Shown here: positions 3,814-56,698 of the stretch, in pieces
Layout: every line of letters starts with the position of its first letter
How positions within the stretch are numbered: position 1 is the stretch's first letter
Origin: Escherichia coli
GTDB taxonomy: Bacteria; Pseudomonadota; Gammaproteobacteria; Enterobacterales; Enterobacteriaceae
DNA length: 64,000 nt
NCBI RefSeq assembly: GCF_050920415.1
Contig: NZ_CP169309.1
Direction: 5' to 3' (one strand)
Program-made: the position numbers and the translations under genes
Notes under the pieces: model-generated
Database searches by the model: none
Seen by the model: only the letters and a program-made list of their open reading frames with translations
Told to the model about the DNA's origin: nothing

Positions 3814-4063
3814 TTTTACCCAAAGCAACTTTCCCATAAACCGACAGCATTTGCCTTCATCATATTTACGGCGATGTATAACGCCTACACACAGCGATAT
3901 TGTACTTTACAGGTCACAAGTCAACGTCACTGTAAAAGCGATCTGTGAGGGGTATAGTGGCGTTAAAGAACTGTCGAGAAGGGTATATACACCGGATGAA
4001 GTGCGTAAAATGAACTGACAGGATAAAAGCGCCCTGCTCACCCTGTCAGTAAAGAAATTCTTA

Positions 4064-4681: not shown

Positions 4682-5213
4682 CAGCCACAGGCCCTCAATG
4701 ATATGAAATAAAGTTGGCTGGAGTTTATCATAATTCGTCAGTTTTTCAGCTCAACAGTATGCATAGAAGTGGTATATGCGTTCTCCCTTACGAAGCCTTG
4801 CATAATCCTTCTGAGCTATCATTACAACTGCCTCGCTTGTTATAAGCGGGTAAATGACTGCTGGTAACTATTCACAATCTTTAACCTGTTGCGCAAGTAA
4901 TAGCCCTCTGTTGACCTCCTGGAGATAGTGCAATACTAAGTCCCTGCTCTTATTGCGACTGTTCTACTTTTCATCATTCGCTTAATAGAGAATTCTCGTA
5001 AACACGACTAATACAGAAGACTGAAAGGTCGTCAGCCTACGATAATCTCCCCATAAAATGTGACATGAATCAGGAAGTTTTAACCTCACGTGCTGCGAAA
5101 TCATCGGCGCAAATAGGGCTATATGCCGCGTCTTTTCTGGCTAATTTTATGAAAAGATATTTATTGGCGGCACAAAATAAAGAACAATTTTGAATTCCTT
5201 ACATTCCTGGCTA

Positions 5214-6951: not shown

Positions 6952-7965
6952 TCATTCTGCAGACAACATCAAGCGAAGCCGACCACCGGTTCCCCATATT
7001 TGGCATTGCCAGGCATCGCATCGCTGGCTCAATTGATTCAAATAAGCGTTACCTAAAGTGCCTAACGGAACACCATTACTGATTTGCACCTGGTGTTCGC
7101 CAGTATTTAACGTCGCATTCAGACCCGCAGAAACCAGAATGAGATTTTTCAGTTCGCGATGATAATAGCCAACTAATAGCGGAAACTGCCCCGGCAGATT
7201 GGCCTGACGGAGTAAATGGTTTACCTGCTTCAATAACGCGCCCAACTCTGGCAACCGTTGATTTTGATGTGCAAGCTGTTCCTGTAATAATCCGTTAAAC
7301 AATGCGCGTAATAACAAGGCAGCAAGTACGCCATTATGTCCAGCTCTGGTGACATCAAGGCAATAAAATGCCAGATCGTTTTCCGAAAGTGCGGCAATAT
7401 CAAGCACCAGGCCGGGTTTGTCCGCGGCAACCAATTGACGATAATTAACCCGGCAATGGGAAATCACCTGCTGAACCGGCGGTTGCAATTCCTGTAATAA
7501 TTTCGCCGCTGCGGCAGGGTTATCAACCATTGCATCCCAGTCTCGAAAAAGCCTCTCCTCTTCCTCAACGCGGGAATTAAACATGCTGGGATAGAGACAG
7601 GCAAAAACCATCTCGCGCAAGCGATTCAGATCTTTAACTGGTTTCAGCAAAACATCTTCAACGCCCAGACGTAACGCTTTGGCAATATCTGCCATATTTT
7701 CAGTGGCAGATATCACCAGAACCGGTGTCTGGTCACCTCTGTTGCGTATATGTTCCAGCAGTTTAAGCCCGTTCATTCGTGGCATCGCGATATCACATAT
7801 CATCAGGTCTGGAGTGAAACCTCCCAGCAACTCAAGGGCATCCACCCCATCAGCCGCCAGTACCGTTGTCGCTCCCAATGAGGAAAACCACGAATCCAGA
7901 AGCGAGCGAAATACCTGCTCATCTTCAACAATGAGAATCTGTTTTCCGACCAATGGCTGCGTCAT
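6952..7965 (-). CDS. rssB: Response regulator RssB (RpoS proteolysis adaptor)
   Basis: 337-aa ORF MTQPLVGKQILIVEDEQVFRSLLDSWF...; CheY-like receiver followed by a PP2C-like domain. Confidence 0.95.
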   Translation of the reverse strand: MTQPLVGKQILIVEDEQVFRSLLDSWFSSLGATTVLAADGVDALELLGGFTPDLMICDIAMPRMNGLKLLEHIRNRGDQTPVLVISATENMADIAKALRLGVEDVLLKPVKDLNRLREMVFACLYPSMFNSRVEEEERLFRDWDAMVDNPAAAAKLLQELQPPVQQVISHCRVNYRQLVAADKPGLVLDIAALSENDLAFYCLDVTRAGHNGVLAALLLRALFNGLLQEQLAHQNQRLPELGALLKQVNHLLRQANLPGQFPLLVGYYHRELKNLILVSAGLNATLNTGEHQVQISNGVPLGTLGNAYLNQLSQRCDAWQCQIWGTGGRLRLMLSAE

Positions 7966-8056
7966 GTTCTCTCCCCTGACTGGCTTTACTCAATAGTGGC
8001 ATGCTATTGCCACCTGCGCCTGTCAGAATTAACTTAAGTGTAGATAAAAATTCTGG

Positions 8057-8962
8057 TCAAATGTTGGTGCGTACCAACGGCAAAAGTTCGTCCATTTTCT
8101 TTTCCACTGCCAGCTGCCCAGCCGCAATGGCAGCGTGCGCGCGATGGAAATCAAGCGTAGATATTTGCGGGCAAACAGGTTGAATCAGAATATCGGGCGG
8201 ATCACCTGCCATGCGGTTTCTTTTAAGGCGGTTCTCCAGCACCTGGATAGAAGTGGTCATAATCTCTGTTGCCGTTGGCGCTGTCACCGCCCGACGTGTC
8301 GTTATGCTGCCCAACCTTTCTTTCAGACGCGCATGCCACGGCAGAGAATCACCATTCTCGCTATTTTCTTCACTGACATTAAAGGAGAGCAGATCTTGTT
8401 GCATCAAATGAGCATCGTGCTGCAGGTCGACCGCTATCACAATATCAGCACCCAATGCACGCGTGAGCGAAATAGGAATTGGGTTAACTACTGCCCCATC
8501 AACCAGCCAGTAGCCGTTATGCGCAACGGGTGCCATTAGTCCTGGAATACTGCATGATGCACGAATAGCAAGATGGAGATCGCCTTCAGTAAACCATAAT
8601 TCGCGCCCAGTACTTAAATTGGTGGCAACAGCCGCGAAGCGACGGGAACAATTTTCGATCTCTGTTTCCGGCATTATTTCGCGATATTGATTGAAGACAC
8701 GCTCGCCGCGCAGTAACCCACCGCGCTGCCAGGAGAGATCCATCAGGCGTAAAACATCCCAATAACTGAAAGAGGTTACCCAATCTTCCAGCGCAGATAA
8801 TCGATCGCATGCATAGGCCGCGCCCACCAGCGAACCAATTGAGCATCCTGCAACGATATCAATTTCAATACCCACTTTTTTTAGCGCATTAATAACGCCA
8901 ATATGCGACCAACCTCTCGCCGCGCCAGATCCCAGCGCCAGCCCTATTTTTATCTTTCTCAT
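8057..8962 (-). CDS. rssA: Patatin-like phospholipase RssA
   Basis: 301-aa ORF with GSGAARGW glycine-rich loop and GCSIGS (G-x-S-x-G) lipase motif; immediately upstream of rssB. Confidence 0.9.
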   Translation of the reverse strand: MRKIKIGLALGSGAARGWSHIGVINALKKVGIEIDIVAGCSIGSLVGAAYACDRLSALEDWVTSFSYWDVLRLMDLSWQRGGLLRGERVFNQYREIMPETEIENCSRRFAAVATNLSTGRELWFTEGDLHLAIRASCSIPGLMAPVAHNGYWLVDGAVVNPIPISLTRALGADIVIAVDLQHDAHLMQQDLLSFNVSEENSENGDSLPWHARLKERLGSITTRRAVTAPTATEIMTTSIQVLENRLKRNRMAGDPPDILIQPVCPQISTLDFHRAHAAIAAGQLAVEKKMDELLPLVRTNI

Positions 8963-9074
8963 TATTCCCGCAAGATTCCCCTGGAATGCAATCGTAGCAA
9001 CATCGCTACTGCTCGGTTAACATAGTGCTACTCAGGCGGTTAATACGCCGTTATTGTTTCCAGGGAGATTATTT

Positions 9075-9533
9075 GTGTCTCAGCTTTGTCCCTGTGGTAG
9101 TGCTGTCGAGTATAGCCTATGTTGCCACCCTTATGTGTCTGGTGAAAAGGTTGCACCTGATCCAGAACATCTCATGCGTTCGCGTTACTGCGCTTTTGTG
9201 ATGCAAGACGCAGATTATTTAATAAAGACCTGGCATCCATCTTGTGGAGCGGCGGCGTTACGTGCCGAATTGATTGCCGGATTTGCGCATACTGAATGGT
9301 TGGGATTGACCGTATTTGAACATTGTTGGCAGGACGGCGACAATATCGGATTTGTCAGTTTTGTTGCTCGATTTACCGAAGGTGGCAAAACAGGCGCCAT
9401 AATTGAACGTTCACGATTTTTGAAAGAAAACGGTCAATGGTACTATATTGACGGTACACGTCCGCAGTTTGGCCGCAACGCTCCCTGCCCTTGTGGTTCA
9501 GGTAAAAAATTTAAAAAGTGCTGCGGCCAATAA
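9075..9533 (+). CDS. ychJ: SEC-C metal-binding-motif protein YchJ (UPF0225)
   Basis: Start taken as GTG at 9075 ([20 protein letters not shown]...); the track ORF begins at an upstream TTG. Cys-rich CPCGS...CC motifs at both termini. Confidence 0.8.
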
Positions 9534-9582
9534 TGGTTGACGGTACGGTTAAGCAAACACTCTCAACAAGGTTTTTCCAGCA

Positions 9583-10425
9583 ATGCATTCACTCCAACGT
9601 AAAGTTCTGCGTACTATTTGTCCGGACCAAAAAGGTCTGATCGCCCGTATTACTAATATTTGCTATAAGCACGAGTTAAATATCGTGCAGAACAATGAAT
9701 TTGTTGATCACCGTACCGGGCGCTTTTTTATGCGCACGGAACTGGAAGGCATTTTTAATGATTCCACCCTGCTGGCGGATCTCGACAGCGCATTGCCAGA
9801 AGGCTCCGTACGTGAGCTGAATCCTGCCGGTCGTCGCCGGATAGTGATTCTGGTCACTAAAGAGGCGCATTGCCTTGGCGATTTGTTGATGAAAGCCAAT
9901 TACGGCGGCCTGGATGTCGAAATCGCGGCAGTTATTGGTAACCACGATACTTTACGTTCTCTGGTTGAGCGTTTTGATATTCCGTTTGAGCTGGTAAGTC
10001 ATGAAGGATTAAGTCGCAACGAGCACGATCAAAAAATGGCGGATGCCATTGACGCTTATCAGCCTGACTACGTGGTGCTGGCGAAGTATATGCGCGTATT
10101 AACGCCAGAGTTCGTAGCACGCTTCCCGAATAAAATTATCAATATTCACCATTCATTCCTGCCAGCGTTTATCGGTGCACGTCCCTATCACCAGGCCTAT
10201 GAGCGTGGCGTGAAGATTATTGGTGCAACCGCTCACTATGTGAATGACAATCTGGATGAAGGCCCAATCATCATGCAGGACGTTATTCATGTCGATCATA
10301 CATACACGGCTGAAGATATGATGCGTGCAGGTCGTGATGTCGAGAAAAACGTATTAAGCCGCGCGCTTTACAAAGTGCTGGCGCAGCGTGTATTTGTTTA
10401 CGGTAACCGGACGATTATTCTTTAA
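9583..10425 (+). CDS. purU: Formyltetrahydrofolate deformylase
   Basis: 280-aa ORF MHSLQRKVLRTICPDQKGLIARITNICYKHELNIVQN...; ACT domain plus formyltransferase domain. Confidence 0.95.
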   Translation: MHSLQRKVLRTICPDQKGLIARITNICYKHELNIVQNNEFVDHRTGRFFMRTELEGIFNDSTLLADLDSALPEGSVRELNPAGRRRIVILVTKEAHCLGDLLMKANYGGLDVEIAAVIGNHDTLRSLVERFDIPFELVSHEGLSRNEHDQKMADAIDAYQPDYVVLAKYMRVLTPEFVARFPNKIINIHHSFLPAFIGARPYHQAYERGVKIIGATAHYVNDNLDEGPIIMQDVIHVDHTYTAEDMMRAGRDVEKNVLSRALYKVLAQRVFVYGNRTIIL

Positions 10426-10507
10426 TCGCTGGCAAAATAGAACTGGTTGCCTTTAATCCGTTACGGATGAAAATTACGCAACCAGTTCATTTTTCTCAAC
10501 GTAACCC

Positions 10508-10543
10508 TTTACAGCGGCGTGTCATTTGATATGATGCGCCCCG
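10508..10543 (+). promoter_or_regulatory. tyrT promoter (-35 TTTACA 10508-10513, -10 TATGAT 10530-10535, GC-rich discriminator GCGCCCCGC)
   Basis: Matches the classic stringently controlled tyrT promoter; 16-bp spacer; leaves a leader of about 43 nt before the mature tRNA 5' end at 10586. Confidence 0.8.
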
Positions 10544-10585
10544 CTTCCCCACAAGGGAGCAGGCCAGTAAAAAGCATTACCCCGT

Positions 10586-10670
<85 letters not shown>

Positions 10671-10704
10671 TCTCAAGCATTACATCAAAATTTGAATTAT
10701 CCCT

Positions 10705-10770
<66 letters not shown>

Positions 10771-10789
<19 letters not shown>

Positions 10790-11506
10790 TCACTTTCAAA
10801 AGTTCCTGAAATCCCCAACAAATCCACAATTAAATATTCTGCCCATGCGGGGAAGGATGAGAAGCTTCGACTAAGGTTCGACTCGAGCGCCAGCGAGAGA
10901 GCGTTGCCGCAGGCAACGACCCGTAGGGCGAAGCGCGCAGCGCTGAGTAATCCTTCCCCCACCACCATCACTTTCAAAAACCCCTGTATTCTCCAACGAA
11001 TCCGTAACTGAATATTCTGCCCATGCGGGGAAGGATGAGAAGCTTCGACTAAGGTTCGACTCGAGCGCCAGCGAGAGAGCGTTGCCGCAGGCAACGACCC
11101 GTAGGGCGAAGCGCGCAGCGCTGAGTAATCCTTCCCCCACCACCATCACTTTCAAAAACCCCTGTATTCTCCAACGAATCCGTAACTGAATATTCTGCCC
11201 ATGCGGGGAAGGATGAGAAGCTTCGACTAAGGTTCGACTCGAGCGCCAGCGAGAGAGCGTTGCCGCAGGCAACGACCCGTAGGGCGAAGCGCGCAGCGCT
11301 GAGTAATCCTTCCCCCACCACCATCACTTTCAAAAACCCCTGTATTCTCCAACGAATCCGTAACTGAATATTCTGCCCATGCGGGGAAGGATGAGAAGCT
11401 TTGACTAAGGTTCGACTCGAGCGCCAGCGAGAGAGCATTGCCGCAGGCAACGACCCGTAGGGCGAAGCGCGCAGCGCTGAGTAATCCTTCCCCCACCACC
11501 ATCACA
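10771..11506 (+). repeat. tyrT-operon 178-bp tandem repeats (4 full units starting at 10771, 10949, 11127, 11305, plus a 24-bp partial); rtT RNA/tpr region
   Basis: Each unit starts with the tRNA 3' motif AATCCTTCCCCCACCACCATCAC; exact 178-bp period read from the sequence; copies near-identical apart from the first unit and two substitutions in the fourth. Confidence 0.9.
11391..11480 (+). pseudogene. tpr: tpr (protamine-like peptide) frame interrupted by TAA at codon 6
   Basis: ATG AGA AGC TTT GAC TAA... encodes MRSFD-stop; the same TAA is present in all four repeat copies. Read-through would give the Arg-rich 29-aa peptide I recall for K-12 tpr (from memory). Confidence 0.35.
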
Positions 11507-11623
11507 CCCTTAAATACTCAAAACCTGTTACTTCAAGCTAATTTGCCCCGTGGCACCGCGTTTACCGGACCTACAATATCCTCCCCTATATGTCAGATAA
11601 GCGAATCACTCCGCAGCGTACCC

Positions 11624-11650
11624 ATAAAAAAACCCCGCCGAAGCAGGGTC
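11624..11650 (-). terminator. Rho-independent terminator after narI
   Basis: Minus-strand CCCTGC-UUCG-GCGGGG hairpin (one G-U pair) followed by a U7 run, about 20 nt past the narI stop. Confidence 0.6.
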
Positions 11651-11669
11651 TGTGTGAACTAAAATTCAC

Positions 11670-12347
11670 TTAGTGGCGAGCGCGCACCAGCTGATACTTA
11701 CGTGTCAGATACTCCACCGGGACACTCCAGATGTGCACCAAACGCGAGAACGGGAACAGCAGGAATAACGTCATCCCCAACACCAGGTGCAGACGGAAGA
11801 TAAACGCCACACCATCAAGGTGTTGAGAAGCGCCACCGTGGAAGGTCACCACCGACTGCGCCCAGCCAACCAGTTTCATCATCTCGCTACCGTCCATATG
11901 TTGGGCAGAAAATGGAATAGTCAGCAGACCCAACGCGCACTGGATAACGAGCAGCGACAGGATCAGGATGTCCGCCCCGGTAGTCGTTGCACGCACACGC
12001 GGGCTGAACAGGCGGCGTTTCAGCAACAGCACGCCGCCAATCAGACACAGCACGCCGCTGGCACCACCAGCAATCATCGCCATTTTCTGTTTCACTTCAA
12101 TTGGCAACCACGCTTCATACATCCAGTGCGGCGTCAGCATACCGAAGAAGTGGCCGACAAAAATCCCCAGAATTCCGATATGGAACAGGTTCGACGCCAG
12201 GTTCATCCCTTTGCGATCCAGCATCTGGCTGGATGCCGCGCGCCAGGTGTACTGCCCGTAGTCATAGCGCAGCCAGCTACCAATCAGGAAGACGGCCCCG
12301 GCTATGTACGGGTAGATATCAAAGAAGAACATATTCAGGAATTGCAT
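11670..12347 (-). CDS. narI: Respiratory nitrate reductase gamma subunit (heme b)
   Basis: 225-aa polytopic membrane [38 protein letters not shown]...; last gene of narGHJI. Confidence 0.95.
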
Positions 12348-13057
12348 TAGTGCTGTCCTCCGGTGGTGATATTCAGATATTGCGGCGCGACGGCACCGGC
12401 AAAGCGACGCTGATGAGCAGTGATTGCTGAATCACCGCAACCTTTGTCAGCAAAGAACTTAACCTGCTCTTCTTCCCAGACAGCATCCAGCGCCTGTGGC
12501 GTATCGTCGCGCGCTTCGTCGGCAATTTTTTCCGCCACTTTGTCGCTGTCGATAGCGGTATTCGCCAGTTTCAGCAGCAGATCAAACAGCACGGCATAAC
12601 GGCTTTCACGCTGTTGCAGACGCGCGCTCAGCAACGCCAGAATCGGCGCGATATCTTTCAAACCTTCCACAGCTTCGCTTTGCGGCAGCTGCGCCAGATA
12701 CTCCAGATACAGCGGCAGATGATCCGGTAATTCACGACTGTTCAATTGCAAACCGTGCTGCTCATACTGTGCCAACAAGTCAACCATTGCCTGGCCGCGA
12801 TCGCGGGATTCACCGTGAACATGCTCAAACAGCAGCAACGACGTGGCGCGACCACGGTCGAACAGTTCGCTGTACTGGGCCTGAGCATCCAGCGGATCCA
12901 GCGCTGTTAAATCGCGCAGGAAAATGCCCAGCGCATGGGCATCCTCTTTCGACAGATTTTCCGACGCAGCAATCGCCTCAAACATCTCTTGTTGATGCTG
13001 CCATAAGGCAGCATCCGGATATTCAAGGAGACGCGATACAATCACGAGTTCGATCAT
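12347..13057 (-). CDS. narJ: Nitrate reductase molybdenum cofactor assembly chaperone
   Basis: 236-aa [35 protein letters not shown]...; overlaps narI start and narH stop. Confidence 0.95.
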
Positions 13058-14592
13058 GGGTGCGGCTCCGTTTTACTGGTCACGTCGATGGCATCGATAC
13101 GGCGGCTGTTGAACAGATTGAATTTGGTATCTGAACCGTGGCAGCCGTCACCAAAGGTAAAGCCACAGCCATTTTTCTCCGGGAAGGCTTCCCGCGCCAG
13201 TTCACGGTGACTGCTCGGCACCACAAAGCGATCTTCGTAGTTGGCAATTGCCAGATAACGGTACATCTCCTGTGCCTGAGCTTCGGTCAGACCGACCTCT
13301 TCCAGCGCACGGGTATCAACTTTACCGTCAACGGTTTCAGCACGTTTGTAATGACGCATCGCCAGCATACGTTTCAGCGCGCGCAGTACCGGTTTGGTAT
13401 CACCGGCGGTCAGCAGATTCGCCAGATACTGTACCGGGATACGCAGGCTTTCGACGTCTGGCAAAATACCGTTGCTGCCCAGCTCGCCCGCATCTGCCGC
13501 AGACTGAATCGGCGACAGAGGTGGCACATACCAGACCATCGGCAGCGTGCGATATTCCGGATGCAGCGGCAGCGCCAGTTTCCATTCCATCGCCATTTTA
13601 TAAACCGGCGACTGCTGTGCGGCTTCAATAACGCTCAGCGGAATACCATCTTTAATCGCCTGCTCGATGACGTTCGGATCATTCGGATCGAGGAACACGT
13701 CCAGCTGACGCTGGTAGAGATCTTTCTCGTTCTCGGTGCTGGCTGCACGTTCAATCGCGTCGGCATCGTACAGCAGCACGCCAAGATAACGGATACGACC
13801 GACACAGGTTTCAGAGCACACCGTCGGCTGACCGGCTTCAATACGCGGATAGCAGAAGATGCACTTCTCAGACTTACCGCTCTTCCAGTTGAAGTAGATT
13901 TTTTTGTACGGGCATCCGGTGATGCACATACGCCAGCCGCGGCATTTGTCCTGGTCGATCAGGACGATGCCATCTTCTTCACGCTTGTAAATCGCACCGC
14001 TCGGGCAGGTCGCCACACATGCCGGGTTCAGGCAGTGTTCGCACAGGCGTGGCAAATACATCATGAAGGTGTTTTCGAACTGGCTATACATCGCCTTCTG
14101 GATGTTGTCGAAGTTCTTGTCTTTCGCCAGTTTGTCAAACTCGCCGCCCAGGTCATCTTCCCAGTTCGGTCCTTTTTCGATTTTCGCCATCCGTTCGCCG
14201 GTAATCAGCGAACGTGGACGGGCAATCGGCTGCGATTTGCTGCCTTCCGGCGCGGTATGCAGGTTCTGATAGTCAAAATCGAACGGCTCGTAATAATCGT
14301 CGATCCCCGGCAGATGCGGGTTAGCGAAGATTTTACCCAGCAGCATGGCGCGGTTACCCATGCGCGGTTGCAGTTTGCCGTTGATTTTTCGGATCCAGCC
14401 GCCTTTGTATTTTTCCTGGTTTTCCCAGTCTGTCGGGAAGCCCTGGCCCGGCTTGGTTTCCACGTTGTTGAACCACGCGTATTCCACGCCTTCACGGCTG
14501 GTCCAGACGTTTTTACAGGTCACTGAACAGGTGTGGCAACCGATGCACTTATCCAGATTCAGCACCATGCCGACTTGTGAACGAATTTTCAT
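13054..14592 (-). CDS. narH: Respiratory nitrate reductase beta subunit (Fe-S)
   Basis: 512-aa ORF with multiple ferredoxin-type Cys clusters (CIGCHTCSVTC, CEHCLNPACVATC). Confidence 0.96.
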   Translation of the reverse strand: MKIRSQVGMVLNLDKCIGCHTCSVTCKNVWTSREGVEYAWFNNVETKPGQGFPTDWENQEKYKGGWIRKINGKLQPRMGNRAMLLGKIFANPHLPGIDDYYEPFDFDYQNLHTAPEGSKSQPIARPRSLITGERMAKIEKGPNWEDDLGGEFDKLAKDKNFDNIQKAMYSQFENTFMMYLPRLCEHCLNPACVATCPSGAIYKREEDGIVLIDQDKCRGWRMCITGCPYKKIYFNWKSGKSEKCIFCYPRIEAGQPTVCSETCVGRIRYLGVLLYDADAIERAASTENEKDLYQRQLDVFLDPNDPNVIEQAIKDGIPLSVIEAAQQSPVYKMAMEWKLALPLHPEYRTLPMVWYVPPLSPIQSAADAGELGSNGILPDVESLRIPVQYLANLLTAGDTKPVLRALKRMLAMRHYKRAETVDGKVDTRALEEVGLTEAQAQEMYRYLAIANYEDRFVVPSSHRELAREAFPEKNGCGFTFGDGCHGSDTKFNLFNSRRIDAIDVTSKTEPHP

Positions 14593-50240: not shown

Positions 50241-51938
50241 ATGAAAGCCACCGCCCCTCCTCGCCCGCAAAAAATAGCGTTAATTCCCGCCTGCGTTTTG
50301 TTGTGTTTCGCTGCGCTAGCGGTGCAGGCAGAAGAAACGCCAGTAACGCCACAGCCGCCTGATATTTTGTTAGGGCCGCTGTTTAACGATGTGCAAAACG
50401 CCAAACTTTTTCCGGACCAAAAGACCTTTGCTGATGCCGTGCCGAACAGCGATCCGCTAATGATCCTTGCAGATTATCGAATGCAGCAAAACCAGAGCGG
50501 CTTTGATCTGCGCCATTTCGTTAACGTCAATTTCACTCTGCCGAAAGAGGGAGAGAAATATGTTCCGCCAGAAGGGCAGTCGCTGCGCGAACATATTGAC
50601 GGACTTTGGCCTGTATTAACGCGTTCTACCGAAAACACCGAAAAATGGGATTCTCTGTTACCGCTGCCGGAACCTTATGTCGTGCCGGGCGGACGTTTTC
50701 GCGAGGTATATTACTGGGACAGTTACTTCACCATGTTAGGGCTTGCCGAAAGCGGTCACTGGGATAAAGTCGCGGATATGGTGGCCAATTTTGCTCATGA
50801 AATAGACACTTACGGGCATATTCCCAACGGCAACCGCAGTTACTATTTAAGCCGCTCGCAACCGCCATTCTTTGCCCTGATGGTAGAGTTACTGGCGCAG
50901 CATGAAGGCGATGCCGCGTTGAAGCAATACCTGCCGCAAATGCAAAAAGAATATGCTTACTGGATGGACGGTGTTGAAAACCTGCAAGCCGGACAACAGG
51001 AAAAACGCGTTGTAAAACTTCAGGATGGTACCCTTCTCAACCGCTACTGGGACGATCGCGATACGCCACGACCAGAGTCATGGGTGGAAGATATTGCCAC
51101 CGCCAAAAGCAACCCGAACCGGCCTGCCACTGAAATTTACCGCGACCTGCGCTCTGCCGCTGCGTCTGGCTGGGATTTCAGCTCGCGCTGGATGGACAAT
51201 CCGCAGCAGTTAAATACCTTACGCACCACCAGCATCGTACCGGTCGATCTGAACAGCCTGATGTTCAAAATGGAAAAAATCCTCGCCCGCGCCAGCAAAG
51301 CTGCCGGAGATAACGCGATGGCAAACCAGTACGAAACGCTGGCGAATGCCCGTCAAAAAGGGATCGAAAAATATCTGTGGAACGATCAACAAGGCTGGTA
51401 TGCCGATTACGATCTGAAAAGTCATAAAGTGCGCAATCAGTTAACCGCTGCCGCCCTGTTCCCGCTGTACGTCAATGCGGCAGCGAAAGATCGCGCCAAC
51501 AAAATGGCGACGGCGACGAAAACACATCTGCTGCAACCAGGCGGCCTGAACACCACGTCGGTGAAAAGTGGGCAACAATGGGATGCGCCAAACGGCTGGG
51601 CACCGTTGCAGTGGGTCGCGACAGAAGGATTACAAAACTACGGGCAAAAAGAGGTGGCGATGGACATTAGCTGGCACTTCCTTACCAATGTTCAGCACAC
51701 CTATGACCGGGAGAAAAAGCTGGTGGAAAAATATGATGTCAGCACCACCGGAACAGGGGGCGGCGGTGGCGAATATCCATTACAGGATGGCTTTGGCTGG
51801 ACCAATGGCGTGACGCTGAAAATGCTGGATTTGATCTGCCCGAAAGAGCAACCGTGTGACAATGTTCCGGCGACGCGTCCACTCAGTGAATCAACAACAC
51901 AGCCGCTAAAACAAAAAGAGGCGGAACCTACGCCTTAA
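50241..51938 (+). CDS. treA: Periplasmic trehalase
   Basis: 565 aa from ATG 50241 ([32 protein letters not shown]...); AAGGAGA SD 7 nt upstream; signal peptide; termini differ from the K-12 sequence I recall. Confidence 0.94.
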
Positions 51939-52070
51939 CTTTACTGTATATCGAGCAATGCCATTACGTGCATAAAATTGGCATTGCTCTTTCTTCATCA
52001 CGAAATACCACTCTTTCTACAGTCTATGCCTTTATTTTCTTTTATTAGGGAAGATTTTAATTTTATTTTA

Positions 52071-52090
52071 TCAACTTATTAATCATTACA
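52071..52090 (+). promoter_or_regulatory. Candidate Fur-box-like site (CTTATTAATCATTAC)
   Basis: Partial match to the GATAATGATAATCATTATC Fur consensus in the AT-rich region upstream of the uptake operon; judged by eye only. Confidence 0.25.
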
Positions 52091-52216
52091 CCTCTATTTA
52101 TATTTTTCCCCACTCCCCATTCTCCCTGACAATTTTCTTGTGGAACAAAGTGTTATTTAAGAAACAAGCAAATCATTCTGTCTCTTTAGACAAATTTTGA
52201 CATCAAACATGATCTT

Positions 52217-52250
52217 TTTCGCTATATATGTAAGTATATATCGGTTTTAA
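52217..52250 (+). promoter_or_regulatory. Candidate sigma70 promoter for the uptake operon (-35 TTGACA 52217-52222; A/T-rich -10 region about 52241-52249)
   Basis: Consensus TTGACA hexamer about 50 bp upstream of the ATG at 52268, followed at 17-19 bp by CTATAT/TATATG; CAGGA SD before the ATG. Confidence 0.4.
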
Positions 52251-52267
52251 TTATCAGGATATTACTT

Positions 52268-53290
52268 ATGTCACTAACCAGACGGAGGTTTACACAGATT
52301 CTTGCGTCGACATTGTTCCTGCATCATCTGCCGTCCTTTGCACAATCAGTCAAATTCTGGGCCTCACTGACGCTTCCCGAAGCCCAAAACATTACACGCA
52401 TCGTCAGCGCAGGCGCGCCCGCCGATTTACTATTGCTGGCTGTCGCGCCAGAAAAAATGGTCGGTTTTTCCTCTTTTGATTTTGCCCGTCAGGCATTAAT
52501 TCCATTGCCAGAGCACATTCGCCAGTTCCCCAGGCTGGGACGACTCGCCGGGCGCGCCAGCACACTCTCGCTGGAAGGGCTTATGGCATTACATCCCGAT
52601 TTGGTCGTTGATTGCGGCAATACGGATGAAACCTGGATCTCCCAGGCACGGCAGGTTAGCGAACAGACACAAATACCCTGGTTATTGCTTAACGGGAAAC
52701 TGGAACAATCAGCAGAACAGTTAACAACGCTTGGCAAAACGTTAGGCGAAGAGCACCGCGCCGCAGAACAAGCCAATCTCGCCAGCCGCTTCGTTGGTGA
52801 AGCTAAGGCATTCGCCACCTCACCCGCCGCTAACCTCAGCTTTTATGCTGCGCGCGGTCCTCGAGGGCTGGAAACGGGCTTACAGGGTTCGTTGCATACC
52901 GAGGCGGCGGAATTATTAGGTTTGCACAACGTCGCGCAAATAGCCGATCGCCACGGTCTGACACAGGTTTCCATGGAAAATCTCCTGCGCTGGCAGCCGG
53001 ATATTATTCTGGTTCAGGAGGCCGTTACTGCAGATTTTATTCGTCGTGATCCTCTCTGGCAGGGCGTGAAAGCGGTTGCGGAACAACGCATCTTATTTTT
53101 AAGTGGCCTGCCCTTTGGCTGGCTGGGTGCCCCGCCGGGAATCAACCGTCTTCTGGGATTACGCAGACTTCACGCCTGGCTGGATCCCGCCATCAATCGC
53201 CAGTTTAAAAGTGACATGCAGCATTACGCCCAACTGTTCTGGCATTGCCCATTAAGTGACGCTGACTATCAAAAATTGGTGGCGAGCTAA
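52268..53290 (+). CDS. Periplasmic substrate-binding protein (FecB/BtuF-like) with twin-arginine-type signal peptide
   Basis: 340-aa ORF MSLTRRRFTQILASTLFLHHLPSFAQS...; RRRF motif then hydrophobic region and AxA-like cleavage site; first gene of a coupled operon. Confidence 0.8.
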   Translation: MSLTRRRFTQILASTLFLHHLPSFAQSVKFWASLTLPEAQNITRIVSAGAPADLLLLAVAPEKMVGFSSFDFARQALIPLPEHIRQFPRLGRLAGRASTLSLEGLMALHPDLVVDCGNTDETWISQARQVSEQTQIPWLLLNGKLEQSAEQLTTLGKTLGEEHRAAEQANLASRFVGEAKAFATSPAANLSFYAARGPRGLETGLQGSLHTEAAELLGLHNVAQIADRHGLTQVSMENLLRWQPDIILVQEAVTADFIRRDPLWQGVKAVAEQRILFLSGLPFGWLGAPPGINRLLGLRRLHAWLDPAINRQFKSDMQHYAQLFWHCPLSDADYQKLVAS

Positions 53291-54270
53291 TGAGAACCGT
53301 AAACGGATGTATTTTGCTGCTGGCAGCTATCAGTATCACTTTTGCCGCCGTAAGTGGGGCTTATCATCTCGATATACAGCAACTGCTGGCGCTCATTCTG
53401 CGTCAAGAAAATGTTCCTGTGCAGGAACAAATTGTCTTCTGGCAAATCCGCGTGCCGCGTATTCTTGCTGCGCTGTTTCTGGGCGCGGCGCTGGCAGGGG
53501 CCGGAACCACCTATCAGGGAATGTTCCGTAATCCCTTAGTGTCACCGGATATTTTAGGCGTCTCCGCCGGTGCCGGACTTGGTGCCTGCGCGGCAATCCT
53601 GTGGGGATTATCCATTGTTTACATCCAGCTGTACGCATTTTGCGGCGGGCTGATGGTGGTCGCGGGCGTCTGGTTGATTACGCGTCGGGTGACCCGCCAC
53701 GATCCGATCTTAACCCTGGTGCTGGTAGGCATTGCGTTAGGAACGTTGTGCGGAGCGGGGATATCGCTAATAAAAACGCTGGCCGATCCTTACACCCAGT
53801 TACCGTCAATTACCTTCTGGTTGCTGGGGGGGCTGTCCACCGTGACCTTACGCGATCTCTGCTATGCTGCACCGATCATTCTCATAGGCTCCTTGCCCCT
53901 GTTTTTTCTCCGCTGGCGCATGAATTTACTCACGCTTTCCGACGACGAAGCCCATTCGCTGGGACTGAACGTGACACGTCTGCGCTTTGGATTGATTGTC
54001 TGCGCCACACTCATCACCGCCAGCACGGTAGCAATAGCGGGCATAATTGGTTGGGTCGGCCTGGTCGTTCCGCACATTGCCCGCTTGTTGACCGGTCATA
54101 ACCATCAGCAGCTATTGCCCATGGCAATGTGTACTGGCGCGATTCTGCTCCTGCTTACCGATACGCTGGCACGCAGCATTGGAACAACAGAAATCCCACT
54201 TGGCATTCTGACCGCTTTTGTTGGTGCACCGTTTTTCCTGTTTTTGTTGTTACGCGGAGGTCGCCAGTGA
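53290..54270 (+). CDS. ABC transporter permease (FecCD family)
   Basis: 326-aa polytopic ORF; start overlaps the upstream stop (TAATG); FecCD-like segment SPDILGVSAGAGLGA. Confidence 0.85.
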   Translation: MRTVNGCILLLAAISITFAAVSGAYHLDIQQLLALILRQENVPVQEQIVFWQIRVPRILAALFLGAALAGAGTTYQGMFRNPLVSPDILGVSAGAGLGACAAILWGLSIVYIQLYAFCGGLMVVAGVWLITRRVTRHDPILTLVLVGIALGTLCGAGISLIKTLADPYTQLPSITFWLLGGLSTVTLRDLCYAAPIILIGSLPLFFLRWRMNLLTLSDDEAHSLGLNVTRLRFGLIVCATLITASTVAIAGIIGWVGLVVPHIARLLTGHNHQQLLPMAMCTGAILLLLTDTLARSIGTTEIPLGILTAFVGAPFFLFLLLRGGRQ

Positions 54271-55025
54271 CTTTGCTTGCCGTCCGTCATGCGTCTCTGG
54301 GTTACTCCCGCCATCCGATGCTACGCGACGTGTCCTTCACCCTGTCGCAAGGAACAATTTGTTGTCTGTTAGGAGCCAATGGTTGCGGCAAAACCACACT
54401 CATGCGCTCCATTCTTGGCGTTATACCGTTATTAAAAGGCGAGATCTTACTGGATAGCCTCCCTGTGCAGACACTCAGCCATCGCCAGCGCGCGCAGGCT
54501 ATTGCCTGGGTGCCGCAGGCGCACGACGGCATTTTTGCTTTTAGTGTGCTGGATATGGTGTTGATGGGCCTGGCCCCCACCATAGGCGCTTTTTCCGTTC
54601 CCGGTAAGCAAGAACGCCTGAAAGCAACGGAGCAACTGGAAAAGCTGGGCATTTTGCATCTGGCGACACGACGCTGGAATACACTTAGCGGCGGTGAACG
54701 TCAGCTGGCTTTAATCGCCCGTGCACTCGTCCAGCAACCGCGCTTGTTATTACTGGATGAGCCTGCCTCCAGCCTCGATTTCGGTCATCAGATCCAACTA
54801 CTGGACACGCTGGCGCAGCTCAAAAATAACGGCATGACAATGCTAATGTCGACTCATCATCCGCTCCATGCCAACGCCATTGCCGACAGCATTATCCAGG
54901 TAGAGCCAGATGGACGAGTAACACAAGGCTTACCGACCGAACAGTTAACAACGAACAAACTGGCTGCCCTGTATCGGGTTTCTGCCGACCAGATTCATCA
55001 TCACCTCTCTGCAATTAGCCACTAA
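54267..55025 (+). CDS. ABC transporter ATP-binding protein (FecE-like)
   Basis: GTG start overlapping the permease stop (GTGA); Walker A GANGCGKTT, signature LSGGERQ, Walker B LLLLDEPASSLD; the track ORF extends upstream in the same frame. Confidence 0.85.
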   Translation: MTLLAVRHASLGYSRHPMLRDVSFTLSQGTICCLLGANGCGKTTLMRSILGVIPLLKGEILLDSLPVQTLSHRQRAQAIAWVPQAHDGIFAFSVLDMVLMGLAPTIGAFSVPGKQERLKATEQLEKLGILHLATRRWNTLSGGERQLALIARALVQQPRLLLLDEPASSLDFGHQIQLLDTLAQLKNNGMTMLMSTHHPLHANAIADSIIQVEPDGRVTQGLPTEQLTTNKLAALYRVSADQIHHHLSAISH

Positions 55026-55034
55026 GGAACAATC

Positions 55035-55847
55035 ATGCTCATTGATGATATTGATTTTGCGGACCTTTACCTGCAGCAACTCAAGCTGGCCCACCGCACA
55101 GAAAAAACGCCGGATCACTGGGATCAACGGGCGGAAAAAATGGCGGAAAATTGCGCCTCGCCTACGGACAGCTACCTGCAACAACTGACCGCTAAAATTG
55201 ATCTGCAAGGCGCGCAGACCTTATTCGATATGGGCTGCGGACCGGGTACCGTATCGCTGGCGCTGGCTGACAAACTCACGACGATTTATGGCATTGATTA
55301 CAGTCAGGGGATGCTGAAGGTTGCCGCCCGTCGCGCCGCCGCGCTAAAGGCAGACAATGTCCACTGGATCCAGCGCGCATGGGAAGAGGACTGGAGTGAC
55401 CTGCCACGCTGCGATATTGCCGTGGCTTCCCGCTCCACTCTGGTGGCTGATATGCGCCAGGCAATGAGCAAACTGAATAATCAGGCACGGCTTCGCGTCT
55501 ATACGACTCATCTGGTCAGCACCTCGTTCGTCTCTCCAGCCATTCAGCGGGCGGCTGGTCGGGAAGTGATCGAATTACCCAACTATATCTTTGCGCTCAA
55601 CGTCCTGTATCAGATGGGAATTTATGCTCACGTTGATTTTATCCGCGGACAAAATTGCCCACAGGATAACAGCACCTGGGAACGTTTTGAGCAGAACGTC
55701 AGCTGGAGTCTGGGCGCGCTTAACGACGATGAGCGTGAGCGGTTATATCGCTGGTATCAACAACAAGATGCTCGTGCCCTCGCCCCTGCCAGCCGCGACT
55801 GGGCGCTCATCTGGTGGGATAGCGTACCGCAAGAGGCACTGCGATGA
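55035..55847 (+). CDS. Class I SAM-dependent methyltransferase
   Basis: 270-aa ORF with SAM-binding motif I (LFDMGCGPGTVSLALA) and acidic motif II (IYGIDYS); AAGGA SD upstream. Confidence 0.75.
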   Translation: MLIDDIDFADLYLQQLKLAHRTEKTPDHWDQRAEKMAENCASPTDSYLQQLTAKIDLQGAQTLFDMGCGPGTVSLALADKLTTIYGIDYSQGMLKVAARRAAALKADNVHWIQRAWEEDWSDLPRCDIAVASRSTLVADMRQAMSKLNNQARLRVYTTHLVSTSFVSPAIQRAAGREVIELPNYIFALNVLYQMGIYAHVDFIRGQNCPQDNSTWERFEQNVSWSLGALNDDERERLYRWYQQQDARALAPASRDWALIWWDSVPQEALR

Positions 55848-56698
55848 TTTTCCTTTCTCAGGCACAAATCGATGCGTTACTGCTGGAAGATATCCAGGGC
55901 GGTGACCTGACCACGCGAGCATTAAATATTGGACACCAGCATGGCTATATAGAGTTTTTTCTCCGTCAGGGCGGCTGCGTCAGCGGCATTTCTGTCGCGT
56001 GTAAGATGTTAACTACGCTGGGATTAACTATTGATGACGCGGTCAGCGACGGTTCACAAGCGAACGCGGGTCAGCGGCTAATCCGTGCGCAAGGTAATGC
56101 CGCAGCACTTCATCAGGGATGGAAGGCAGTCCAGAATGTGCTGGAGTGGAGTTGCGGTGTTTCTGATTATCTCGCTCAAATGCTGGCGTTACTTCGTGAA
56201 CGTTACCCTGATGGCAATATCGCCTGCACCCGAAAAGCAATTCCGGGTACCCGCTTACTGGCCTCGCAGGCAATTCTGGCTGCCGGAGGACTGATTCATC
56301 GTGCCGGATGTGCGGAAACCATATTATTGTTTGCCAACCACCGCCATTTTCTTCATGACAATCAGGACTGGTCAGGCGCAATCAATCAGTTACGTCGCCA
56401 CGCACCCGAGAAGAAAATAGTTGTTGAAGCCGACACGCCGAAAGAGGCAATCGCCGCGTTACGCGCGCAACCAGACGTACTTCAGCTCGACAAATTTAGT
56501 CCGCAACAGGCAACTGAAATTGCGCAAATAGCACCGTCGCTGGCTCCCCACTGCACGCTGGCTCTGACCGGCGGAATTAATCTGACAACACTCAAAAATT
56601 ACCTCGACTGCGGCATTCGCCTTTTTATTACCTCCACGCCTTACTACGCGGCACCTGCTGACATTAAAGTCAGTCTGCAACCCGCAGCCTCTATTTAA
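55844..56698 (+). CDS. ModD-family protein (quinolinate/nicotinate-nucleotide pyrophosphorylase fold)
   Basis: 284-aa ORF MIFLSQAQIDALLLEDIQGGDLTTRAL... with TRKAIPGTR motif typical of the NadC/ModD family; ATG overlaps the methyltransferase stop (ATGA). Confidence 0.7.
   Translation: MIFLSQAQIDALLLEDIQGGDLTTRALNIGHQHGYIEFFLRQGGCVSGISVACKMLTTLGLTIDDAVSDGSQANAGQRLIRAQGNAAALHQGWKAVQNVLEWSCGVSDYLAQMLALLRERYPDGNIACTRKAIPGTRLLASQAILAAGGLIHRAGCAETILLFANHRHFLHDNQDWSGAINQLRRHAPEKKIVVEADTPKEAIAALRAQPDVLQLDKFSPQQATEIAQIAPSLAPHCTLALTGGINLTTLKNYLDCGIRLFITSTPYYAAPADIKVSLQPAASI

Follow-up and report, generated by a model that had tools for sequence, protein, structure and literature searches.

A predicted ModE operator in the promoter leader of a TonB-dependent uptake operon of Escherichia coli annotated as an iron transporter

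The window analysed here, a stretch of 64,000 nucleotides from Escherichia coli (contig NZ_CP169309.1 of assembly GCF_050920415.1), contains downstream of the gene treA a six-gene uptake operon annotated as an iron transporter, which codes for a periplasmic binding protein, a permease, an ATPase, a methyltransferase, a ModD protein and a TonB-dependent outer-membrane receptor. Between treA (stop at 51938) and the start codon of the binding-protein gene (ATG at 52268) lies a spacer of exactly 329 bp (51939-52267, plus strand), and this leader, which lies within a variable segment missing from K-12, is the element under study. Its G+C content (GC) is 30.1%, as compared to 52.3% in treA, 52.5% in the operon and 50.4% in the whole window. 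An initial annotation, made from the letters of the window alone, had described an AT-rich 329-bp leader between treA and the operon, which is borne out by the 52-53% GC of the flanking genes, and had pointed to two T-rich strings, which are both present at positions 52031-52050 and 52055-52072. The sequence of NZ_CP169399.1 is 100% identical to the window across the leader region, and the leader occurs in 2136 of 5426 complete E. coli genomes (39%), including those of CFT073 and O157:H7. Comparison of these sequences with orthologous loci of other bacteria suggests that the leader is probably a promoter repressed by ModE-molybdate, which would control a TonB-dependent, Mol-type uptake operon.

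The leaders of CFT073, Escherichia sp. MOD1, Escherichia albertii and Enterobacter sp. BIGb0383 were aligned with that of the window in an unbiased manner. A single block, TTGAyn-N17-CGnTATATATGnAAnTATAyAnCG, was common to all, and in the window this block holds the dyad CGCTATATA-N6-TATATATCG at 52220-52243. The arms of the dyad (52220-52228 and 52235-52243) are 9 nt long and 89% complementary, and an inverted-repeat search of the region found just two such repeats, a hairpin behind treA (I1) and this dyad (I2). Although it is the sole statistically outstanding feature of the leader, the dyad had gone unmentioned in the initial annotation. The E. coli ModE consensus has been given as ATCGNTATATA-N6-TATATANCGAT, with a TATAT-N7-TAYAT core (Rodionov et al. 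2004, PMC545781), and when scored against the 20 specified positions of this consensus, the sequence at 52218-52245 (TTCGCTATATATGTAAGTATATATCGGT) matched at 18. ModE had been listed in the initial annotation among the matrices worth scanning. The predicted ModE operator, or Mo-box, would thus comprise TTCGCTATATA-TGTAAG-TATATATCGGT at 52218-52245, without strand preference and with a core palindrome at 52220-52243, and it extends from 24 to 50 nt upstream of the ATG.

The quality of this match can be appreciated by comparison with the upstream regions of modA, moaA, dmsA and napF of K-12, which we take to be ModE targets. The same scan found one site in each of them, with 4, 4, 3 and 2 mismatches, respectively (16-18/20), and the leader site, with 2 mismatches, is level with the best of the four. 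Throughout 90.9 kb of E. coli DNA scanned, it was the sole match with five mismatches or fewer. Moreover, the pattern CGNTATATN7TAYATANCG with two mismatches permitted has one site in the 64-kb window, where 0.12 would be expected, with matches on both strands, and the operator score was reached by none of 1000 shuffles of the leader. The modE gene, counted in E. coli only, is present in 5391 of the 5426 genomes. By every available sequence test, the dyad at 52218-52245 is predicted to be a ModE operator.

The box is found 28-58 nt 5′ of the orthologous binding-protein gene in Escherichia (three species and a cryptic clade), Enterobacter, Citrobacter, Cedecea, Serratia, Shewanella and Providencia. 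Mismatches to the consensus amount to 2-3 in the E. coli variants, Escherichia sp. MOD1-EC7003 and E. albertii (3 in the latter), to 1 in Enterobacter sp. and in Cedecea, and to 2 in Citrobacter and in Serratia fonticola. Among E. coli alleles, the substitutions in the box fall on the N positions of the consensus and on the spacer, and the arms are kept; a BLAST search with the 61-nt promoter core showed most E. coli alleles to differ from the window at 1-3 positions, in bands too coarse for an estimate of selection. The box of Shewanella dokdonensis has 2 mismatches, and the operon of this species lacks modD, whereas its methyltransferase gene and its two ModE boxes have been kept. A second box is present before the receptor gene wherever there is an intergenic gap, as in Providencia, Serratia and Shewanella; the one in Shewanella is a 20/20 match. 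The location of this box directly 5′ of the receptor gene implies a separate ModE control of the receptor in those genera; in E. coli, the receptor gene has neither an upstream gap nor a second box. The six-gene operon keeps the same order in several genera and its flanking genes vary between genera, and no regulator gene linked to the operon was found in the orthologous loci compared, which indicates a regulator acting in trans and encoded elsewhere. In the compared loci, the Shewanella version of the operon occupies positions 7001-12771, and the second boxes lie at 10757-10784 (Shewanella), 10546-10573 (Providencia) and 11489-11516 (S. fonticola). Damaged versions of the locus also occur within E. 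coli: in strain E500002, the right arm of the box is degenerate and the binding-protein gene is truncated, and strain M11957 has an internal stop in the binding-protein gene.

Upstream of the box, the plus strand carries TTGACA at 52197-52202, a conserved 6/6 match to the -35 consensus with an invariant TTGA and a fixed distance of 17 nt to the CG that opens the ModE box. The promoter with a TTGACA -35 element proposed in the initial annotation is supported by this conserved TTGA at fixed spacing; the hexamer had been misplaced, however, at 52217-52222, and actually lies 20 nt upstream. Since TTGACA arises on the plus strand in 9% of leader shuffles, the hexamer is unremarkable by itself. The arrangement TTGAnn-N17-C(G/A)nTAT is kept in seven lineages (E. 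coli, Escherichia sp. MOD1, E. albertii, Enterobacter sp., Citrobacter, Cedecea and S. fonticola), the letters of the 17-nt spacer are not conserved, and such a conserved TTGAnn followed by an invariant gap has the signature of a -35 element and its spacer. On the downstream side, a Shine-Dalgarno AGGA (52256-52259, plus strand), invariant in the alignment, lies 8 nt 5′ of the ATG of the binding-protein gene. With this AGGA and with a box centre 36.5 nt from the ATG, as compared to 31 nt at modA, any transcription start would fall within or just beside the box, and no start can be placed that leaves the box outside the core promoter. Boxes at ModE-activated promoters, as found in the K-12 regions scanned, lie about 85-210 nt upstream, and the modA-like geometry of the leader, unlike that of these promoters, leaves repression by promoter occlusion as the only fitting arrangement.

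According to the mechanism proposed here, the functional core of the leader would be the stretch 52197-52245, formed by a promoter with the TTGACA -35 element and by a ModE operator that covers the -10 and start-site region. When molybdate in the cytoplasm is sufficient, a ModE-molybdate dimer would occupy CGnTATATA-N6-TATATAnCG and block RNA polymerase, as at modABC, whereas under molybdate scarcity ModE would be released and the six-gene operon transcribed. The match, uniqueness, position and cross-genus conservation of the operator were read from the sequence and its comparisons, and it is from them that we infer the binding of ModE, its repressive effect and molybdate as the signal.

The genes of the operon, all on the plus strand, lead in the same direction. 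The first one (52268-53290), annotated as 'iron ABC transporter substrate-binding protein', encodes a periplasmic substrate-binding protein of the Peripla_BP_2 class, whose top match in the PDB is 4PAG, an unnamed binding protein (3e-25). It is followed by a FecCD-type permease of the type II importers (53290-54270), which in the PDB comparison is closest to MolB: its top solved relative is 2NQ2_A HI1471, with 1.5e-64 versus 2.7e-49 for HmuU and about 1e-41 for BtuC, and it is 42% identical to Haemophilus-type MolB. The ABC ATPase (54267-55025 in the coordinates of PGAP) is closest to MolC, its top single-domain PDB match being 2NQ2_C HI1470 (8.4e-36). Next come a class I S-adenosylmethionine (SAM)-dependent methyltransferase (55035-55847), which has the same position in all the orthologous operons, and ModD (55844-56698), a quinolinate-phosphoribosyltransferase-like protein (TIGR01334, 4e-151, with a cut-off of 178.85 bits; Pfam QRPTase_N/C) that shares 45% identity with its counterpart in the Haemophilus-type mol cluster. 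ModD-type proteins occur together with molybdenum transport genes, and in Zymomonas both modD and modE lie within the nif cluster, alongside TonB-dependent transporters (PMC8594446). The final gene codes for a TonB-dependent outer-membrane receptor with plug and barrel (56724-58694), for which solved structures offer a weak plug-domain match to haem receptors, and the convergent gene ymgE comes after it. The counterpart of the operon in CFT073 is c1646-c1652, and that in O157 Sakai is ECs1693-1699, known as 'iron uptake locus 4' and absent from K-12 (Ogura et al. 2007, PMC2323221); in the literature on the locus tags Z196x/ECs169x, only mentions in listings were found.

A near-perfect ModE site in the place of a Fur box suggests molybdenum rather than iron uptake, and the operon, in spite of its annotation as an iron transporter, would most likely serve the acquisition of molybdenum (or tungsten). 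As for the transported substrate, which we infer from the gene content and from the homology to MolBC and ModD, the local character of the match between the binding protein and MolA suggests that it may differ from free molybdate, and a metal chelate is a possible candidate because the binding protein is of the siderophore class. A complete ModE-controlled, TonB-dependent molybdenum/tungsten route can be sketched only tentatively, with a chance that we put slightly below even: an oxyanion or a chelate (a 'molybdophore') would pass from the receptor to the Mol-type type II ABC importer and then be processed in the cytoplasm by ModD and the methyltransferase.

Two side observations concern the surroundings of these genes. 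In S. fonticola, a gene with a MOSC domain, which is a domain of molybdenum cofactor sulfurases, lies right after the receptor gene (13556-14197 of the compared locus), a circumstantial link to molybdenum. Some E. coli contigs, on the other hand, encode a protein that fuses the binding-protein domain to the QRPTase_C domain of ModD, which would be explained by a deletion within the operon of these strains.

Several observations weigh against the control of this operon by ModE and against molybdenum as its cargo. The assignment of the -10 element in E. coli is the weakest link of the model: a 17-nt spacing gives CGCTAT, which agrees with a -10 hexamer at 2/6 positions, TATATA lies at 20 nt, and a sigma-70 consensus scan of the leader found no promoter on the plus strand. 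A possible extended -10, TGtAAGTAT, is located at 52229-52237, inside the spacer of the box. In Providencia, TAATTT lies 17 nt past TTGACT and the box comes immediately after it, over the predicted start. The boxes before the binding-protein gene of this genus are degenerate, with 4-6 mismatches in all 11 loci. The binding protein is not clearly MolA-like, as its similarity to MolA HI_1472 of H. influenzae (3PSA/3PSH) is a local match in the C-terminal lobe (8.5e-8), no similarity was found in the comparison with the N-terminal part of MolA, and proteins of its class usually bind siderophores, haem or cobalamin. The receptor, in turn, resembles a generic siderophore or haem receptor, the locus is classed as iron uptake by Ogura et al. 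(2007, PMC2323221) as well as in its NCBI annotation, and ModE has been studied in K-12, a strain without the operon. Finally, RNA polymerase beta-subunit signals over the operon of CFT073 in laboratory medium are just 0.44-0.58 ('Class V'; PMC9765446), a low occupancy that is compatible with repression but could equally be explained by an inactive promoter or by partial silencing through H-NS.

This last possibility can be extended to a reading in which the leader is only the AT-rich junction of an island, coated by H-NS as the main control, and the palindrome nothing but TA-rich promoter sequence. The initial annotation had already taken the T-runs as typical of H-NS-bound or horizontally acquired junctions, and the low GC of the leader, its presence in a segment that is variable in E. 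coli and the low polymerase occupancy fit such a view. In the H-NS chromatin immunoprecipitation (ChIP) data of CFT073 (PMC9765446), five operon genes have signals of 0.77-1.82, whereas c1652 (3.63) and treA (3.95) stand above the value of about 1 of their neighbours, and ycgY, the gene that takes the place of the operon in K-12, is H-NS bound with a signal of 11.34. On either side of the leader, the signal thus amounts to a sub-threshold 3.6-3.95, and a small patch of H-NS may lie on this AT-rich stretch. However, all six operon genes fall below the cut-off of the authors and are classed by them as 'H-NS not bound', and low GC is confined to the 329-bp leader, the composition of the operon being genome-like. 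Nor does the junction look like that of a recent insertion: the treA-operon-ymgE synteny is shared with Citrobacter, treA precedes the operon in Cedecea too, and the homology to K-12, which breaks off precisely at the stop codon of treA, is regained in the last 24 nt of the receptor gene (window 58671-58694; about position 4056 of the K-12 comparison segment), which persist in K-12 next to ymgE. Synteny and remnant together indicate an ancestral presence with later loss in K-12-like lineages. A CG-flanked dyad at a fixed position across genera with differing leaders would be left unexplained, and H-NS as the main control is therefore unlikely, although it may act as a second control layer. A further alternative is that Fur-Fe2+ represses an iron-uptake promoter at the AT-rich leader and that iron starvation induces the operon. 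The gene content (a Peripla_BP_2 protein, a FecCD permease and a TonB-dependent receptor) is like that of siderophore and haem systems, the locus is counted among the iron uptake loci of O157 Sakai (PMC2323221), and an AT-rich leader yields several Fur consensus matches of 11-13/19. One of them is the Fur-like string of the initial annotation, CTTATTAATCATTAC, which exists on the plus strand but starts one position earlier than stated (52075-52089 instead of 52076-52089), and which is judged here a non-functional chance match. Its agreement with the Fur consensus GATAATGATAATCATTATC is 11/19, less than the average of 11.96 that shuffled leaders reach with their best match, and the top match in the leader, 13/19, is equalled in 24% of shuffles. 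The Fur matrix check proposed in the initial annotation has thus returned background scores, and scans with the Fur 19-mer, the Fur 7-1-7 arrangement and the Zur palindrome, run on the leader against shuffles and K-12 ent/fep controls, all stayed at chance level. Three control regions of K-12 ent/fep genes gave 13-16/19 in the same Fur scan, with 13/19 for fepA-fes, so that the mere counting of consensus matches does little to tell real Fur boxes apart, and the rejection of Fur rests mainly on the lack of conservation and on published ChIP and RNA data. The string lies about 110 nt 5′ of the -35 element, is polymorphic in E. coli (AATCAGTAC in O157:H7) and is missing from Escherichia sp. MOD1-EC7003 and E. 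albertii, and no positionally conserved Fur-like site was found in 17 orthologous leaders. In CFT073, which shares the same leader, the Fur ChIP-seq table has no peak at 1487xxx-1489xxx, and c1646-c1652 appear in none of the direct-regulon, indirect-regulon and proteomics tables (PMC7157518). With a chance-level, non-conserved site and neither a Fur peak nor Fur-dependent expression listed for CFT073, the Fur reading was rejected as very unlikely. Of the iron or metal regulation put forward initially, some metal-responsive control thus seems likely, iron and Fur are not supported, and the metal that fits best is molybdenum, through ModE.

The dyad could also be the operator of another regulator, or a pair of -10-like TATATA elements, with no involvement of ModE. 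The assignment to ModE was made by sequence similarity and TA-rich palindromes are low in information; in addition, the TGnAA of the spacer is partly kept in Escherichia, Citrobacter, Cedecea and Enterobacter, a conservation that ModE does not need and that may reflect the embedded extended -10. On the other hand, the dyad conforms to the ModE consensus in the CG that flanks it on either side, in its spacing of exactly 6 nt and at the outer AT/CGAT positions, and the same signature is shown by the four K-12 regions taken as ModE targets. These features persist where the promoter geometry is altered, as in the Providencia box past its TAATTT -10 or in the second box before the receptor gene, and the orthologous loci offer ModD and MolBC homologues as cargo but no conserved linked regulator gene, all of which makes a dyad without a role for ModE decidedly improbable. 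Resemblances to FNR, CRP and IHF half-sites around TTGACATCAA, inspected by eye only, were all weak. Control at the RNA level, by a molybdenum cofactor (Moco) or cobalamin riboswitch or by a leader-peptide attenuator in the 5′ region, would be suggested by the length of the spacer (329 nt), by the frequent occurrence of such riboswitches before transporters of this kind and by four small open reading frames of 20-34 codons that overlap the leader. None of the four is conserved, however, and no ribosome-binding site was seen before any of them. A scan of 51500-52700 with Rfam at E up to 10 gave no Moco or cobalamin riboswitch, its only three matches being chance-level ones to eukaryotic or archaeal snoRNAs and miRNAs, and the conserved -35 element allows a 5′ untranslated region of at most about 35-45 nt. 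Moreover, the sole strong hairpin of the leader is the one behind treA, which very likely is the treA terminator. This probable intrinsic terminator (51953-51997, plus strand) has an 11-bp perfect stem, with arms at 51953-51963 and 51979-51989, a 15-nt loop and then the U-rich tail CUUUCUUC; its fold of -18.6 kcal/mol (z = -3.96) was matched by none of 200 shuffles, it is kept in all the aligned E. coli variants, and it was missed by a simple terminator scan because its loop exceeds 8 nt. In an alignment of nine E. coli alleles, the leader is indel-prone from 51939 to 52096 and nearly invariant from 52097 to the ATG. The 5′ part would thus consist of the treA terminator and, after it, an AT-rich, indel-prone and poorly conserved spacer without conservation outside E. 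coli, and RNA-level control appears extremely unlikely.

The reading preferred here, a promoter under ModE repression, finds its nearest parallel in modABC. Both operators share the 24-bp frame CGnTATAT-N7-TAYATAnCG (CGTTATATTGTCGCCTACATAACG in K-12 modA, CGCTATATATGTAAGTATATATCG in the leader), both lie about 30-37 nt before the first ATG and over the core promoter, and both precede molybdenum-linked transport cargo. The leader site is, however, nearer to the consensus (2 versus 4 mismatches), its -10 is not evident, and the genes differ: in place of the type I importer ModABC, the operon encodes a type II (BtuCD-like) importer with ModD, a methyltransferase and a TonB-dependent receptor. The ModE regulon of E. 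coli has been defined by experiment in K-12, and the operon, absent from this strain, consequently lies outside it. A ModE site before a modD-containing operon is also known from modDABC of Geobacter sulfurreducens, which has an E. coli-type ModE site upstream (PMC545781, Table 6), but there modD accompanies a classical modABC and there is no outer-membrane receptor. With the Fur-regulated fep, fhu, chu and fit operons, the locus has in common a TonB-dependent receptor, a class III binding protein, a FecCD permease, an ATPase and an AT-rich upstream region, whereas it differs from them in the lack of a significant or conserved Fur box and of a CFT073 Fur peak or Fur-dependent expression, and in carrying ModD and a methyltransferase, which those systems do not normally contain.

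In the case of the transporter itself, the closest system is that of H. influenzae, where HI1470-72 is described as the molybdate/tungstate importer MolBC-A, adjoining modD (HI1473), and the mol cluster HI1469-HI1475 as a 'secondary', low-affinity molybdenum importer (PMC3928620; PMC4031551). According to Rice et al. (PMC4031551), molB is repressed by molybdate via 'an unknown factor', and in a 2020 review MolBCA is confined to some strains of H. influenzae (PMC7759655). The permease and ATPase of MolBC-A are the closest solved relatives (2NQ2) of those of the E. coli operon, and modD is linked in both; unlike in H. influenzae, the binding protein is not clearly MolA-like. Compared with the Haemophilus mol cluster, the enterobacterial operon adds the SAM methyltransferase and the TonB-dependent receptor, and is without the ModA-like, CysU and SalX genes. 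A Mo-box-like site with 4 mismatches lies about 40 nt before the first gene of the Haemophilus-type cluster, which fits ModE as the 'unknown factor', although a single AT-rich genome makes this a weak test. The genes of this Haemophilus-type cluster are, in order, ModA-like, CysU-like, SalX-like, ModD, MolA, MolB, MolC and ModA-like; boxes were noted in its locus at 5139-5166 and 8209-8236, with a half-good box before molA. ModE operators are well known, and the one predicted in the leader would be an additional member of this set, the operon being a variant of the Mol system with a TonB-dependent receptor and a methyltransferase. A literature search found no paper that describes the E. coli locus as molybdenum-regulated, although curated regulon databases fell outside this search and a prior prediction is possible, and none that combines 'MolBC' and 'TonB'.

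If this interpretation is correct, the locus (ECs1693-1699 in Sakai, c1646-c1652 in CFT073) would have to be relabelled from iron uptake to molybdenum-responsive, and a TonB-dependent receptor would be tied to molybdenum homeostasis, as the first outer-membrane receptor dedicated to this metal. About 40% of E. coli genomes would have the system, among them those of uropathogenic CFT073, ST131 and O157:H7. Since molybdoenzymes support pathogens that respire anaerobically in the inflamed gut and urinary tract, a second regulated molybdenum route, restricted to certain lineages of E. coli, would have a bearing on pathogen fitness. By extension, the 'unknown factor' behind the repression of Mol-type operons, including the mol cluster of Haemophilus (PMC4031551), could be ModE.

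Some minor features of the region and of its relatives can be added. The nearest Fur peak of CFT073, a weak one with a height of about 20, lies at 1491491 of NC_004431.1, inside dhaM (window ~48.5-49.9 kb) and 2.6 kb from the leader. Within E. coli, the length of the leader is polymorphic (window 51990-52060), with a 7-nt duplication (GAAATAC C) just past the treA hairpin in two strains and one additional ATTTT unit in O157:H7, and the treA gene of O157:H7 F8798 is frameshifted. The minus strand at 51919-51935, within the 3′ end of treA, has a terminator-like hairpin followed by a T-run, which would stop antisense transcription from the leader side. Finally, a 2.5-kb contig labelled as part of a metagenome-assembled genome of the actinobacterium Collinsella sp. 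(JAIJJM010000486.1) is 99% identical to the E. coli locus, and has almost certainly been mis-binned.

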